A DNA stretch of 64,000 nucleotides, taken from IMG/VR virus record IMGVR_UViG_3300043177_000122, positions 128,001 to 192,000 of that record, one strand, 5' to 3'. Under the pieces are notes generated by a model. That model made no database searches. It saw only the letters and a program-made list of their open reading frames with translations, and was not told the DNA's origin. Shown piece by piece: positions 7,919-18,748 of this stretch. Position 1 is the stretch's first letter. Every line of letters begins with the position of its first letter. The translations under genes and the position numbers were made by a program. The stretch is from a virus. Lineage: Duplodnaviria > Caudoviricetes.

Positions 7919-8665
7919 TCACAGTGAAGGGTCATTGAACGGAATAAAACACGGTTTCACCCTGCTCATATAGGCGTAACAATTTTTTTGAAATTTAGTC
8001 AAATTTTCTTGGTGTTGTTTAGTTTTAAATTCACGATACTCTCCCACATCTAAATCCCCTTCACCAAAATGAGAGCCTTTGCCAGGAAGGTATCCAATTT
8101 CCCAACCAGCCATTCTAGCTCGGAAATACCAATCAGCGTCTTCTTCGCCATATAAACCATAATCTAATGTGAAGAATCCAATCTTTTTATGCAAATCACG
8201 ATGAAAAACTGAGCAGGCTGTACCTAAATTACCATCAGATTTCTTTTGGAATGATTTGCCATTTCTAGTAACTAGTGGATATTCGGTTCCTTCAAAGTTA
8301 ATTCCAATTGCTAATCTAGGATTGTCTTTGATTAAATCAATACATTGACGTAACCAATCATAATGAACGTCAATATCATTATCTATAGTACATAGATACT
8401 CTGCTTCTGGTACCAATTTATCTGCTAATTGAAGGCCTTGATTTCTTCCCACTGCAATTCCTCTGTTTTCTTTGTTAAAATGTAGTGTAATCTTTGCAGT
8501 ATTTTCTTTAACCATTTCTGTTAGCCATTCTTGAGTTCCATCAGTAGATCCATTATCTACAATTATTAAATGATAAGTACCAATTGTATTTGGAAAGAAA
8601 CTATTAAGCATTCTTTTGGTTAAATCGAGGCGGTTATAAGTAACCATCATAATAGCAGTTGTCAT
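7919..8665 (-). CDS. glycosyltransferase family 2
   Basis: VTYNR, IVDNGSTDGT, DND (DxD), YGEEDADW motifs. Confidence 0.9.
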   Translation of the reverse strand: MTTAIMMVTYNRLDLTKRMLNSFFPNTIGTYHLIIVDNGSTDGTQEWLTEMVKENTAKITLHFNKENRGIAVGRNQGLQLADKLVPEAEYLCTIDNDIDVHYDWLRQCIDLIKDNPRLAIGINFEGTEYPLVTRNGKSFQKKSDGNLGTACSVFHRDLHKKIGFFTLDYGLYGEEDADWYFRARMAGWEIGYLPGKGSHFGEGDLDVGEYREFKTKQHQENLTKFQKNCYAYMSRVKPCFIPFNDPSL

Positions 8666-13227: not shown

Positions 13228-13578
13228 GGGGATGACATAGATTCGACGTGGTTTCGAATTATCGAAATGATGCAAACAGAGGATGATTGCCCCTCCAAAA
13301 GTAATCAACGTATAAATGCAAACGATAATGCATTTGCAATGGCCGCCTGAGGGCACCATTCGTTCCTAGATAAGACTGCTTGAGTAATCAATGGAACGCC
13401 AACCCACAAAGCTGGTTGATGAATATGGCTACGATGTTCAACAACAAGATTAACAGTAGATAGCTAGCCGGAGCGAATTCTTGCAGCGTTGTTGATAACG
13501 CCAATATCAACTAAGTTTGTGAATGAGTTTTGATAAGGGCATATCGCGGACTCGGCTGCAATGCCGACATCTCCACCA
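13228..13578 (+). ncRNA. ssrA: tmRNA (SsrA), tag peptide ANDNAFAMAA*
   Basis: 5' GGGGATG...ATTCGAC, 3' CATCTCC-ACCA with G3:U70; tag frame GCA AAC GAT AAT GCA TTT GCA ATG GCC GCC TGA at 13318-13350. Confidence 0.93.
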
Positions 13579-14171: not shown

Positions 14172-14634
14172 TAAAACGCCCGCAATTCCTGAAGAAAGAG
14201 CTGTGGGCGATTTTGCTTTTAGGCGCTCCTTCTATTATCATCCCGGAGTAGACGTTTATTGCGGATTTGGGCAAGAAATACAGGCGATTGAAGAAGGTGA
14301 AGTTGTTCACATGGAAAACTTTACTGGGCCTAATGCTAATCCTCCTAGTCCATGGTGGCTAGAAACCTGGAGTATTCTTATTGAAGGAGCTTCAGGCGTT
14401 TTAGGATATTGTGAAATTAAACCATTTCCACATATTAAAATTGGAGTCAAGGTTAAAGCGGGCGAACTAATCGCTACTGTTATTCCTGTTCTTAAAAAAG
14501 ATAAAGGTAATGGTACGACCATGCTTCACTTTGAACACTACGAAACTGGAACTAGACACCATGTAACGTGGGAATTAGACACCATCAAACCCGAAGAATT
14601 AAAAAACTCTCGTTATTTGCTAGAAAAAAAATAA
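14152..14634 (+). CDS. M23-family peptidase-like protein
   Basis: HPGVD motif, V..GE.IA, LHFE; HxH first His absent. Confidence 0.65.
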   Translation: MKWPLRDKTPAIPEERAVGDFAFRRSFYYHPGVDVYCGFGQEIQAIEEGEVVHMENFTGPNANPPSPWWLETWSILIEGASGVLGYCEIKPFPHIKIGVKVKAGELIATVIPVLKKDKGNGTTMLHFEHYETGTRHHVTWELDTIKPEELKNSRYLLEKK

Positions 14635-14648
14635 TCAACCAATAATTG

Positions 14649-14656
14649 GATATATA
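14649..14656 (+). promoter_or_regulatory. GATATAT motif 8 nt upstream of ATG 14664
   Basis: GATATATA-catcgtt-ATG, the same geometry as at 10759, 13607, 16523, 18838, 19319 and 8680(-). Confidence 0.6.
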
Positions 14657-14663
14657 CATCGTT

Positions 14664-15260
14664 ATGAGCTATCTATAGAACCATCTAATTAAGCAAATGA
14701 AAGAGTGTCCACAAACGGATACTCAATCTGTGTATGAACACGGTGTCTCTGTAAAAGAGCACATTTTTGAATTGATTTCATTTTTAAAAACAGGACAAGT
14801 GCCTGAAGGTTGGAGATTACCTGACTGGATGCATATGTATCGAGAGCAGATTCTAGCCTCGCTTCTTCTAGAGGATATCATCAAAGCCTACGCAGTCTTC
14901 CATGATTGTGGTAAACCTTATTGTCTAATAATAGATGATAAGGGCAGAAGACATTTTCCTGACCATCCAGAGATATCACACAACGTTTGGCTTGCTGTTA
15001 GCAATAACAAAACGATTGCTAAGTTAATTCTTATGGATATGAAAATTCATACTATGAAGGCAGCAGATGTTGAAGAATTCTGTCAGCATCAAGAAGCTAT
15101 CACTCTCCTCATTGCAGGATTAGCTGAAGTACATAGTAATGCAAAGATGTTTGGCGGCATTGATTCTGAATCCTTCAAAATCAAATGGAGTCAAATTAAC
15201 AAACGTGGCAAAGCAATTTGTCGTAAACTATTTGGAGAACATCATGTGTCTATAGGTTAA
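14664..15260 (+). CDS. HD-domain phosphohydrolase with in-frame TAG at codon 5
   Basis: ATG AGC TAT CTA TAG AAC CAT CTA ATT AAG CAA ATG... is in frame with track ORF 14697; EHG, FHDCGKP and later H residues typical of HD fold. Confidence 0.7.
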
Positions 15261-15594
15261 AGAAGGCGATAAGCTTTATGTTATTACTCGTGCAGATTTG
15301 GAACCGGGTTATCAAGCAGTGCAGAGTATGCATGCATTGAGACAATTTACGGCAGAGCATCCTGAGGTCGATAAGGCATGGTTTGAGCAATCAAACTATC
15401 TTGGACTTCTTTCGGTGCAGAATGAACAAGAACTCCTGCAGTTGTTAGAACAAGCAAACAACCAAGGGATTCAAGCTTCAGCTTTCCGAGAACCCGATAT
15501 TGATAATCAAATGACAGCCATTGCGTTATCACCTGGCCCTAAGTCTAAAAAGCTTTGTAGCCGTTTACCACTAGCATTAAGAGGTAAGCCATGA
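15244..15594 (+). CDS. Pth2-like (peptidyl-tRNA hydrolase II fold) protein with in-frame TAG at codon 4
   Basis: GGAG RBS then ATG TGT CTA TAG GTT AAA GAA GGC GAT AAG CTT TAT...; KLYVITRADL.PGYQAVQSMHA and FREPDIDNQMTAIA motifs. Confidence 0.75.
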
Positions 15595-15842
15595 GCAAAT
15601 GGATTGATAAAGAGCGTGGGCCCGAATGTTTCTGTGGCATGCCAACTGGAGTATATATTAGTGAAGATGGTAAGGCATGGTTAATGTGTATCTTTCATGA
15701 ATATGAAGCGGGAGCAATGTTCCCGCTCCCTAGAGATGGAAGACCTGATGCCTGGCCTGATATTCCTCGTGAAGAGATAAATGAGCTAATGAAACGAGGA
15801 GCAGAAGAAGATGAACAAGAACCTATTTCAGAAGATGGATAA
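15591..15842 (+). CDS. hypothetical protein (CxC...CxxH)
   Basis: 83 aa ORF, GAGG RBS, overlaps preceding stop. Confidence 0.6.
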   Translation: MSKWIDKERGPECFCGMPTGVYISEDGKAWLMCIFHEYEAGAMFPLPRDGRPDAWPDIPREEINELMKRGAEEDEQEPISEDG

Positions 15843-15996
15843 AAAAGAATACGATTACTGCTCATGTTCGGGCCATTGCTGTGACAAACCAGAGCGATTT
15901 TGCCCTGTTCACGTTTGCGAAGCAGAAAATTTCTGTGAAGAATGCTTTGTTTCAGAATGTGCTAATTGCCACAAATCATGTGCGTGTGACCTATGA
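15811..15996 (+). CDS. small Cys-rich protein
   Basis: 12 Cys in the last ~45 residues. Confidence 0.55.
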   Translation: MNKNLFQKMDKKEYDYCSCSGHCCDKPERFCPVHVCEAENFCEECFVSECANCHKSCACDL

Positions 15997-16346
15997 AAAA
16001 GACTAGTATAGCATCTTTGCAAGAACGTTTAACTGATTGGTTGCCATGGGATGAAGCTATGTATCAGGTTGGAGCTACTCTTGGTTTCTGGCCTGAGTTT
16101 GGCGCACCTCATGATAACGATCCGTGGCATGGCGTTAAAGACGTTATGCACACTAGAAAACATGAACCGCTAGGTGCTATACTGGAATGGTTTCTCAAAG
16201 ATTTGGTTGAAGTGGGTTGTCTTGAATCAAAAACAGTCGAACTTGAATTCGAATTTTCAAGTGGGAAAAAGACCACGATTCCAATCGCGCATTATCGTTG
16301 GAATGTAAAATATAAAGGACCGGCAGATTTAATATCAATGTTATAA
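15993..16346 (+). CDS. hypothetical protein
   Basis: 117 aa ORF, ATGA overlap. Confidence 0.6.
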   Translation: MKKTSIASLQERLTDWLPWDEAMYQVGATLGFWPEFGAPHDNDPWHGVKDVMHTRKHEPLGAILEWFLKDLVEVGCLESKTVELEFEFSSGKKTTIPIAHYRWNVKYKGPADLISML

Positions 16347-16352
16347 TGTAAT

Positions 16353-16426
16353 CCGCTCTTGGTATAGTGGCTGTGCCGTCGACTCTAAATCGACAGAGCC
16401 GTGTTCAAATCACGGAGAGCGGGCCA
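16353..16426 (+). tRNA. amber suppressor tRNA (CUA), copy 1
   Basis: CCGCTCT/AGAGCGG acceptor, G73, CCA; GTCGA-CTCTAAA-TCGAC (anticodon CTA 16385-87); CCGTG-TTCAAAT-CACGG. Confidence 0.88.
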
Positions 16427-16436
16427 AATAATATAT

Positions 16437-16508
16437 GCGCCGTTAGCTCAGTGGTAGAGCGGGAGCCTCTAAAACTCACGGTCGAGGGTTCAAATCCCTC
16501 ACGGCGCA
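16437..16508 (+). tRNA. amber suppressor tRNA (CUA), copy 2
   Basis: GCGCCGT/ACGGCGC acceptor, A73, CCA not encoded; GCTC-AGTGGTA-GAGC; loop CTCTAAA (CTA 16469-71) on a 3-bp stem; GAGGG-TTCAAAT-CCCTC. Confidence 0.8.
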
Positions 16509-16537
16509 CAAACTACTATTATGATATATAATCTAGC

Positions 16538-16720
16538 ATGAACAAATTTATGACTAGATTAGAAATGCAAACACGTGTTAGAACAATTCGAGAAGAATTG
16601 GAAAATAGGAATAAAACTGGTATGGCCAAAATGGCAACCGACGATGGTGCCCCTATATCTACTGAAGACTTGCAAAATGAAATGTTTTCATTGATTTACA
16701 GATTGAGTAAATTTGAATAA
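16538..16720 (+). CDS. hypothetical protein
   Basis: 60 aa ORF preceded by GATATAT-N8. Confidence 0.6.
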   Translation: MNKFMTRLEMQTRVRTIREELENRNKTGMAKMATDDGAPISTEDLQNEMFSLIYRLSKFE

Positions 16721-17832: not shown

Positions 17833-18222
17833 ATGCCTTCTAATACAGACGAATCTAAAAGATATTGGCTTTTAGAGGATCCTCGTAAAACCGGACTTAA
17901 GAATGGGTTACGACAATTAACAATTGAACAGTTACAAAGAGTTATCGATTATCAAGGTGAAATGGTTCTGGACAGCTATAATTATGAGGGTGGAAAATTT
18001 TGTCCTTTAACGATAGCGGTTGAACTAGATAAAACAATAATTAACCCAACACATGAAAAAGTTTTCGATGCCTTGACAAGTATGGGTTATAAAGTTTACA
18101 ATACTCGTGGGATTCCAGGCGAGTTTTACACAAATAATAGGCTGGAAGATTTGCTGGAAGCAGCAAAAGAAGTGTTACAGGAGAAAACAAATCAGAATGC
18201 AAACTGTAAATCAATCAAATAA
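17833..18222 (+). CDS. hypothetical protein
   Basis: ORF with GGTGG upstream of ATG 17833. Confidence 0.6.
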   Translation: MPSNTDESKRYWLLEDPRKTGLKNGLRQLTIEQLQRVIDYQGEMVLDSYNYEGGKFCPLTIAVELDKTIINPTHEKVFDALTSMGYKVYNTRGIPGEFYTNNRLEDLLEAAKEVLQEKTNQNANCKSIK

Positions 18223-18748
18223 TCAGCAGCGTGAATACCGTACTCGTATCAATAAATTCATTCGTGTTCCTCAAATTCGTGTAGTGCTTGCCGATGGTTC
18301 CAATGCCGGCATTATGAATACTTATGAGGCTTTGAAAATGGCACAAGACCAAGGACTTGATTTGGTGGAGATTAGTCCTAAGGCACAACCACCAGTCTGT
18401 AAAATTATGGACTATGGTAAATTTAAGTACGAAGAGAAGAAAAAGCTTCAAGCTGCTAAAAAGAATCAACAGATTCAAGAACTTAAGGAGCTAACTTTTC
18501 GACCCAACACTGATGAGAATGACCTAAAACATAAGCTTTCTCAAGCTAAAGAGTTCTTAGCTGATGGTGACAGGGTTAAATTTGCAGTACGTTTCCGTGG
18601 TCGTGAAATTGTCCATCAGGATATTGGTAAAGAGAAGTTAACTTGGATTCTTCAGGAATTGAATGGTTTAGTATCTCCTAATCCGCAAATTTCTTTAGAA
18701 GGAAAAATTATGTGGATGATTGTTTCTCCTACTAAACAAAAGTCATAA
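18197..18748 (+). CDS. infC: translation initiation factor IF-3
   Basis: RIN..IRVPQIRVV, DLVEISPKAQPPVCKIMDYGKFKYE, FL.DGDRVK..VRFRGRE. Confidence 0.95.
   Translation: MQTVNQSNNQQREYRTRINKFIRVPQIRVVLADGSNAGIMNTYEALKMAQDQGLDLVEISPKAQPPVCKIMDYGKFKYEEKKKLQAAKKNQQIQELKELTFRPNTDENDLKHKLSQAKEFLADGDRVKFAVRFRGREIVHQDIGKEKLTWILQELNGLVSPNPQISLEGKIMWMIVSPTKQKS

Follow-up and report, generated by a model that had tools for sequence, protein, structure and literature searches.

Lak, crAss-like and Agate phages read TAG as glutamine ('code 15') by means of phage-encoded suppressor tRNAs (Borges et al., bioRxiv 10.1101/2021.08.26.457843); the word 'hydrolase' does not occur in that paper. Xanthomonas phage XacN1 carries two tRNA genes with the anticodon CUA (tRNA-CUA), whose target was looked for and not identified (PMC5852040), and both this paper and the one on phage Atu_ph07 list a hydrolase and a suppressor tRNA separately. 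Peptidyl-tRNA hydrolases of the PTH2 type have been noted in jumbo phages (Iyer et al., 2021; PMC7824862); the five passages of that article on PTH2 are silent on in-frame stops, 'amber' occurs once, in a reference title, and 'suppressor' is absent. A 2026 jumbo-phage survey contains neither 'hydrolase' nor 'Pth', and full-text literature searches found no published Pth2 or HD gene gated by a stop codon. The locus described here lies in a window of 64,000 nucleotides, the whole stretch of DNA that was analysed, corresponding to positions 128001-192000 of the 358,993-bp IMG/VR virus record IMGVR_UViG_3300043177_000122. It is an operon in which an HD-motif hydrolase gene and a Pth2-like gene (related to peptidyl-tRNA hydrolase 2) each carry an in-frame TAG within their first five codons, and which ends with two tRNA-CUA genes.

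Comparative sequence data indicate that the first two cistrons probably (with a probability of about 0.7) need the tRNA-CUA pair encoded at the 3' end of their own operon, the stop codon acting as a lock and the tRNA as its key. The source of the window is a giant freshwater phage; the record has a GC content of 38%, an estimated completeness of 83% and 57 tRNA genes. Window positions 14600-16600 are identical in contigs assembled independently from two freshwater runs (13x and 27x depth), which may be the source sample of the record. A megablast search of the phages collection with this region found no near relative.

Early stop codons in the Pth2-like gene and its relatives

The features on which the argument depends are the following:

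14664-15260, plus strand: HD-motif hydrolase gene with TAG as codon 5 (phrog_14850, E 6e-59)
14676-14678, plus strand: in-frame TAG, codon 5 of the HD gene, kept in relatives L002-L008
15234-15237, plus strand: GGAG Shine-Dalgarno sequence, 6 nt (AACATC) before ATG 15244
15244-15594, plus strand: Pth2-like gene, 116 amino acids if TAG is read; it overlaps the HD stop codon, and its own stop overlaps the next ATG (ATGA)
15253-15255, plus strand: in-frame TAG, codon 4 of the Pth2-like gene; the next base is G, a purine
16353-16426, plus strand: tRNA with anticodon CUA, copy 1; C1-G72, G73, CCA encoded (ARAGORN; Rfam tRNA, 47 bits)
16437-16509, plus strand: tRNA with anticodon CUA, copy 2; G1-C72, A73, mismatch at 31-39, CCA not encoded (ARAGORN; Rfam tRNA, 66 bits)

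The Pth2-like leader reads GGAG-AACATC-ATG(15244) TGT CTA TAG(15253) GTT AAA GAA GGC GAT AAG CTT TAT GTT ATT ACT CGT GCA GAT TTG(15298). The frame is open from the TAG to TGA 15592-15594, and no ATG, GTG or TTG is present between TAG 15253 and TTG 15298. The read-through product matches Pfam PTH2 (PF01981) over residues 10-102 with 33.8 bits (cut-off 23), and a profile built from the family hits the Pth2 of M. jannaschii (115 residues; PDB 2zv3) at E 2e-7, residues 10-110 corresponding to chain residues 2-114. An AlphaFold model has a mean predicted local distance difference test score (pLDDT) of 94.9, and Foldseek relates it to archaeal Pth2 and human Bit1 structures (3erj, 2zv3, 1wn2, 1xty and 1q7s) at template modelling (TM) scores of 0.70-0.76. 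Residues 1-10 are modelled with a mean pLDDT of 83, compared with at least 94 for residues 11-110. Strand beta1 comprises residues 10-16; a start at TTG 15298 (residue 19) would thus remove it. Residues R16, D18, Q24, Q27, H30, E83-P84-D85 and T91 are invariant in the phage Pth2-like subfamily.

The sequence-only reading that preceded this analysis had reported a TAG at codon 4 of a Pth2-like gene, the absence of any other start that keeps the fold, and the same CTA-TAG context in the preceding gene. All three hold: the sequence is as it had been written and its product has both the Pfam match and the fold, the first ATG, GTG or TTG after the stop costs beta1, and the HD gene begins with ATG(14664) AGC TAT CTA TAG(14676).

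Relatives of the Pth2-like gene were obtained from IMG/VR in two steps, with 12 loci fetched first and a profile search then yielding 80 loci. All 12 first relatives, at 94% to 38% amino-acid identity, have an in-frame TAG 1-7 codons downstream of an ATG, and one or more tRNA-CUA genes lie within 3 kb of every one of them. The upstream ATG in the relatives is preceded, at equal spacing, by GGAG, AGGAG or GGGAG. A gated leader, defined as ATG, 1-6 codons and TAG directly upstream of the Pth2 domain, was found at 60 of the 80 profile-found loci, and 49 of these 60 have no canonical start whatsoever upstream of beta1. The sequence-only reading had proposed a homologue alignment at these codons and held that a sense codon in relatives would make the TAG a private nonsense mutation. 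The outcome is the opposite, and its conservation shows the TAG at 15253 to be no private mutation.

The 54 distinct stop-gated leaders comprise 52 with TAG, one with TAA and one with TGA, and the stop stands at codon 3 (29 leaders), codon 4 (15) or codon 5 (7). It is followed by A in 40 leaders, G in 13, C in one and T in none, so that 53 of 54 have a purine there. Early studies of amber suppression reportedly found that a purine after the stop favours it, and the leaders fit this classical context for efficient suppression. Selection downstream of the stop was assessed over 14 codons in 27 distinct leaders with equal spacing. Entropy at codon positions 1, 2 and 3 is 0.84, 0.49 and 1.45, and single-base codon differences comprise 1460 synonymous and 354 nonsynonymous changes. 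By this comparison, the segment after the TAG is under coding selection. Being coding and having no start codon, it must be reached by ribosomes coming from upstream, across the stop.

The pairing of an in-frame TAG with a tRNA-CUA was also found at Pth2 genes of five contigs from metagenome-assembled genomes, one of which has the TAG deeper in the gene. In loci L015 (LR756501), L108, L158, L200 and L212 a TAG lies within the Pth2 or HD domain itself, instead of or besides the one in the leader. The requirement seems to be a TAG anywhere in the gene, with a preference for the 5' end. At four other loci (L046:1935, L052:1714, L053:4200 and L075:4248) a second open reading frame (ORF) of about 250 codons begins with the Pth2 N-terminus, M-T-TAG-I-N-H-K-L-I-I-I-T-R-R-D-L, and continues with unrelated sequence; these ORFs may represent a Pth2 gene broken by an inserted element.

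Pth2 genes of the same design are found in mycobacteriophages. Upstream of the gene annotated as 'peptidyl tRNA hydrolase' in Bxz1, Catera, Myrna and Phabba (L103, L019, L018 and L100, respectively) the order is TTGACA, 17-18 nt, TAC(T/A/C)GT, 6-7 nt, ATG or GTG, TAG and GTG. The TTGACA/TACNGT element is promoter-like, and judging from mycobacterial promoter geometry, this looks like a leaderless transcript with TAG as the second codon. A tRNA whose best fold has the anticodon CUA lies 130-300 nt downstream of the gene and is annotated as tRNA-OTHER, Arg(tct) or Ser.

The HD gene, the suppressor tRNAs and the operon

The seven relatives L002-L008 keep the HD leader as M-S-[YH]-L-TAG-N-x-L-I-x-[QD]-M, with synonymous changes flanking the TAG on both sides. 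A family-wide search gave 79 HD loci with 71 distinct leaders. In 49 of the 71, an ATG, up to 12 codons and a TAG precede the conserved N-terminal helix, and a further two are Pth2-HD fusions behind an early TAG. Part of the ungated homologues have a TAG inside the gene instead. H15, H69-D70, H86/H90, D114 and H118 are invariant or nearly so in the family. Pfam PF01966 matches one of seven family members at E 0.001, and the HD protein of the window has no Pfam match. Its AlphaFold model (pLDDT 95.2) has its best, weak Foldseek matches (TM 0.54-0.58, E about 0.01) to structures 3wfo-3wfs, labelled 'tRNA processing enzyme'. In its modelled fold the protein is similar to the part of class II tRNA nucleotidyltransferases that binds tRNA at their C-terminus, which suggests its putative function. 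Structure prediction of a complex between the HD and Pth2-like proteins scored 0.00 and gives no verdict either way.

The two domains are fused, in either order, in XacN1, the Stenotrophomonas phage RAS14 and loci L199 and L216, and an early TAG precedes each fusion. In XacN1 (AP018399, 243756-244595) the fusion is ORF364, and AGAGGA-N8-ATG AAG TAG ACC ATT AAA GCG ATG lies in frame upstream of it. The RAS14 fusion (OP752703, 88311-89096) stands behind ATG AAG TAG, followed by 22 conserved codons without a canonical start, which include a GQTILQHGLS motif; the annotated GTG start truncates the protein and loses this conserved N-terminal motif. An Rfam tRNA search found one tRNA-CUA in the tRNA cluster of RAS14.

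A tRNA-CUA lies within 5 kb in 48 of the 60 gated Pth2 loci, often immediately downstream of the Pth2 stop codon; it can also lie far from the gated gene, as in RAS14 and XacN1. The ungated loci are mostly of high GC content and mostly without a tRNA-CUA. After dereplication at 90% identity, loci with and without a matching suppressor tRNA number 43 and 10 among the gated and 4 and 13 among the ungated (odds ratio 14, p 3e-5), and at 70% identity the odds ratio is 11 (p 9e-4), both figures being uncorrected for shared ancestry. The type of stop follows the anticodon. Locus L045 has ATG ACG TAG AAT and a tRNA-CUA, and its relative L056 has ATG GCT TAA AAC and, at the same position, a tRNA-UUA; locus L079 has a TGA inside the Pth2 domain and a tRNA-UCA. 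On these sequences, stop type and tRNA anticodon covary. The tRNA-UUA call at locus L038 (95 nt) is doubtful, and no tRNA-UCA was found near the TGA leader of locus L072. The Pth2-like gene of Prevotella phage Lak-B8 (MK250027) has no early TAG, and ARAGORN places a tRNA with the anticodon UUA about 600 nt upstream of it.

The suppressor tRNAs adjoining Pth2 across phages have many differing bodies, and the two of the window phage are themselves unrelated. No clear parent was found for them among the 55 other tRNAs of the phage, to whose Lys, Phe and Arg members they are 68-72% identical. A role as amber initiator was considered and rejected: neither tRNA has the C1xA72 mismatch or three G-C pairs in the anticodon stem, and the upstream ATG is always kept.

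The remaining features of the operon are these:

14649-14655, plus strand: GATATAT motif, exactly 8 nt before ATG 14664, at the operon start
15591-15842, 15811-15996 and 15993-16346, plus strand: three small overlapping ORFs without assigned function, between the Pth2-like gene and the tRNAs

GATATAT-N8-ATG occurs eight times in the window (at 8663, 10759, 13607, 14649, 16523, 18838, 19319 and 29119), compared with 0.26 expected, and GATATAT precedes the upstream ATG with the same spacing in relatives L002-L005 and L007. It is likely a phage promoter or a leaderless-start signal; its fixed spacing leaves no space for a Shine-Dalgarno sequence, so that these sites are possibly promoters of leaderless mRNAs. 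The interval from 14664 to 16510 holds no plus-strand terminator, and GATATAT as a start signal does not recur before 16523. Region 14649-16509 is therefore one operon, consisting of GATATAT, the HD and Pth2-like genes with their TAGs, the three small ORFs and the two tRNA-CUA genes. The small ORFs have no Pfam or PHROG match; the product of 15811-15996 has 61 amino acids, among them 14 cysteines (CSCSGHCC...CPVHVC...CEEC...CANCHKSCAC).

The neighbours of the operon are a transfer-messenger RNA (tmRNA) gene, four tRNA-Thr genes and the gene for initiation factor IF3. The tmRNA (13228-13578, plus strand; Rfam RF00023, 104 bits; tag ANDNAFAMAA) was missed by ARAGORN in the window and called by it in relatives L003, L007 and L008. 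The longest ORF of the IF3 gene (18107-18748, plus strand) overlaps the gene before it and reaches the IF3_N domain only at residue 48; translation may in fact start further inside or, as in bacterial infC, at a non-canonical codon. The 57 phage tRNA genes span 19 amino acids; no tRNA-Trp (CCA) was found among them in the 83%-complete record, and no release factor RF-1, SmpB or glutaminyl/glutamyl-tRNA synthetase domains were found in it.

Proposed read-through mechanism and competing explanations

The sequence-only reading had proposed that synthesis of the Pth2-like protein is gated by a suppressor tRNA. This proposal is supported by the conserved stop, the linked tRNA of matching anticodon, the switch to TAA with tRNA-UUA, the coding selection after the TAG and the lack of an alternative start. 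The further suggestions of that reading, a feedback sensor of termination versus read-through and a connection with the bar minigenes, are speculative. That the tRNAs are expressed and charged and that UAG is read through is what we infer from these comparisons. Initiation would take place at ATG 14664 and, through GGAG, at ATG 15244, and the ribosome would meet UAG after four (HD) and three (Pth2) sense codons. Lacking a tRNA that reads UAG, it would release or drop a tri- or tetrapeptide, and the enzymes would not be made. With tRNA-CUA processed and charged, an amino acid would be added within the unstructured tail at the N-terminus, and the HD and Pth2-like proteins would be completed. Such an arrangement would form a feed-forward AND gate, tying the synthesis of two tRNA 3'-end enzymes to a working suppressor tRNA; their roles would be the removal of peptidyl or acyl groups and, probably, of a 3' phosphate. 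A stop at codon 3-5 would make failure cheap and would place the inserted residue where its identity is immaterial.

Several observations weigh against this reading. The case for gating is weaker for the HD gene than for the Pth2-like gene of the window, because of a conserved internal Met at 14697, which could give a shorter product without read-through, and because of the moderate coding signal of the six-codon leader (144 synonymous and 108 nonsynonymous differences). HD homologues with ordinary starts begin upstream of this Met and include the N-terminal helix, and the Met is absent in RAS14. The second tRNA-CUA lacks an encoded CCA and has a weak anticodon stem. In the survey, 12 of the 60 gated loci lack a tRNA-CUA within 5 kb, four Pth2 loci with a normal start still have one adjoining the gene, and shared ancestry may contribute to the association. 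The mycobacteriophage genes have GTG directly after the TAG, which is the annotated start in the Bxz1 family, so that read-through is not compulsory there. TAG is also depleted in the window phage but a real terminator, ending 10 of 301 to 27 of 461 well-scoring ORFs (about 3-6%), and a strong suppressor would lengthen those proteins.

The function of the Pth2-like protein is a further point of this kind. For archaeal Pth2, a Lys in the GKGK loop and the Asp within the DAG motif have been proposed as catalytic. The profile alignment has a two-residue gap at this loop and the invariant EPD opposite DAG, so that the acidic residue is kept and the lysine is not. Because of the gap and this replacement, peptidyl-tRNA hydrolase activity is not assured from the sequence. 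The favoured reason for gating, that clean-up capacity, together with the adjoining tmRNA, would be matched to the read-through and drop-off load of the suppressor, is likewise conjectural.

The main alternative purpose, which we consider unlikely, is autoregulatory feedback, in which the Pth2-like and HD enzymes would act on the acylated or peptidyl form of the suppressor tRNA, or on short peptidyl-tRNAs arising at the early UAG, and the level of the enzymes and the activity of the suppressor would determine one another, much as RF2 controls its own amount through the in-frame UGA of prfB. Read-through would still be needed and only its purpose would differ. Two tRNA 3'-end enzymes recur specifically as clients of the tRNA and are encoded in one operon with it, and the stop stands at codon 3-5, where short peptidyl-tRNAs are most prone to drop off and become substrates of Pth. 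However, the very different bodies of the suppressor tRNAs across phages argue against specific recognition by the enzymes, and the sign of the feedback is unpredictable.

Less probable is that the TAG truly terminates a three-codon mini-ORF, the Pth2-like protein being made by non-canonical re-initiation or from TTG 15298, or the gene being a pseudogene. The codon after the TAG is mostly ATT, GTT, ATC or GTA, the mycobacteriophages have their GTG at this position, and the phage-encoded IF3 could shift start-codon selection; yet other loci have AAC, AAT, AGC, GGC, GAA, ACA, ACG, ACT or CTG after the stop, which are unable to start translation. A start at TTG 15298 would skip 14 codons under coding selection in addition to losing beta1. 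The match of stop and anticodon and the linkage to tRNA-CUA would both be left unexplained, and conservation over 38-94% identity excludes the pseudogene variant. Near-cognate restart directly after the TAG was considered separately and is ruled out by AAC, AAT, AGC, GGC, GAA, ACN and CTG at that codon.

We regard as slightly less probable still, and in any event highly improbable, that the phage reads TAG as sense throughout, as in 'code 15', and that the two TAGs are rare sense codons without regulatory meaning. Such a code would be in line with the presence of two tRNA-CUA genes, with the rarity of TAG as a terminator of long frames (0 of 111 ORFs of at least 300 amino acids and 3 of 144 of at least 250) and with public pipelines, which put Q at TAG in close relatives. 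Against it, the structural and large genes of the window are open under code 11, the well-scoring ORFs mentioned above do end in TAG, and the coding coverage of the window gains only two points when TAG is read as sense, from 0.887 to 0.907 (TGA as sense gives 0.872); in the related loci the gain is similar to that from TGA as sense. A hexamer scan of the 359-kb record for genes with an in-frame TAG found no other convincing case; 13 candidates with coding signal on both sides of an internal TAG proved to be neighbouring genes in the same frame or antisense frames. A scan of the record for a start, a few codons, TAG and an ORF without an early start returned only the Pth2-like gene and, less clearly, the HD gene. 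Genome-wide, no excess of start codons was found just upstream of TAG-bounded ORFs (34%, compared with 29-31% for TAA and TGA). Among the leaders in the 80 related loci in which ATG, a few codons and a stop precede a long ORF other than Pth2, about 20 have TAG, 23 TGA and 16 TAA. By these comparisons the early-stop design is specific to the Pth2 and HD families, and a random rare sense codon would not hold codon 3-5 in two families over dozens of distant phages.

Least probable is a programmed +1 frameshift joining HD and Pth2 at their overlap (GGT TAA A) and leaving ATG-TGT-CTA-TAG unused. In its favour are the fusion of the domains in XacN1 and RAS14, the position of the HD stop TAA (15258-15260), 3 nt beyond the Pth2 TAG, and the reading frame of Pth2, which is +1 to that of HD. 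Against it, both frames are open over only 2 nt, a slippery sequence is absent, most gated Pth2 loci have no upstream HD gene, and the TAG has a well-spaced Shine-Dalgarno sequence and an ATG in front of it.

Significance and comparison with known systems

Gating by tRNA-CUA would give the suppressor tRNAs of jumbo phages with a standard code a concrete target that is conserved, such as was sought unsuccessfully in XacN1 (PMC5852040). Annotation, both automated and manual, systematically mis-starts these genes, as seen in public truncated calls of 98 and 88 amino acids, in the GTG start of the RAS14 fusion and in the GTG after the TAG in the Bxz1 family. The same design occurs in cultivated phages (Bxz1, Catera, Myrna and Phabba on M. 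smegmatis; XacN1; RAS14), so that the hypothesis is directly testable. The window contributes a second gated client, the HD gene, with its pattern across the family, as well as the fusions of HD with Pth2, the operon that has both tRNAs at its 3' end, and the cases of XacN1 and RAS14. If the proposal is true, the operon is a compact, natural lock-and-key circuit based on a stop codon and perhaps an early step along the path that has been proposed to lead to full reassignment of stop codons. A tentative extension, which we consider possible rather than probable, is that the suppressor tRNAs of many standard-code large phages, from mycobacteriophages to 700-kb phages, serve mainly as the key of such a self-contained and portable switch, in which a clearing module of Pth2-like and HD proteins, sometimes fused, and the tRNA would co-regulate each other and sense and buffer the state of the tRNA pool or of termination.

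With the code-15 phages the locus shares a phage tRNA-CUA proposed as a post-transcriptional switch for genes with in-frame TAG. In those phages TAG occurs throughout many structural and lysis genes and the genes for the code change are in standard code, whereas here the genome is in standard code and the only clients of the tRNA are two tRNA-end enzymes, with the stop at codon 3-5 and the clients in one operon with the tRNA. Phages of the XacN1 and Atu_ph07 type resemble the phage of the window in being large and rich in tRNAs, in carrying a suppressor tRNA and a gene for a peptidyl-tRNA hydrolase, and in otherwise keeping the standard code. For read-through, their authors examined the 3' ends of annotated ORFs and obtained no target, whereas here the target is a 5' leader.

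The Pth2-like protein has the fold of archaeal and eukaryotic Pth2 over its entire length. Unlike archaeal Pth2, it belongs to a phage-specific subfamily with its own invariant residues, in which the Lys-containing loop is missing.

In Streptomyces, the chromosomal developmental regulator bldA, a tRNA-Leu(UAA), gates genes containing TTA codons, adpA and others. In both systems, by the present proposal, one dedicated tRNA gates a few genes containing its otherwise avoided codon. The bldA tRNA reads a rare sense codon; here a stop would be read, in competition with release factor, by a tRNA that lies in one phage operon with its clients. An early in-frame signal in a translation-factor gene, reporting on the process in which its product takes part, is common to this operon and to prfB and infC. 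The prfB gene (RF2) is autoregulated through an in-frame UGA and a +1 frameshift at a slippery site with an internal Shine-Dalgarno sequence, and infC (IF3) through an AUU start. RF2 acts directly on the stop. Here the frame is the same on both sides of the TAG and a slippery site is absent. The lambda bar minigenes (AUG AUA UAA) likewise consist of a start, one to a few sense codons and a stop, and the short peptidyl-tRNAs that drop off from them need Pth. These minigenes stand alone; in the present leaders, by contrast, the 14 codons after the stop are in frame and under coding selection, and the type of stop follows the anticodon of the neighbouring tRNA. Overall, the comparisons support the view that the stop-gated operon is a variant both of tRNA-dependent translational control and of phage stop-codon recoding.

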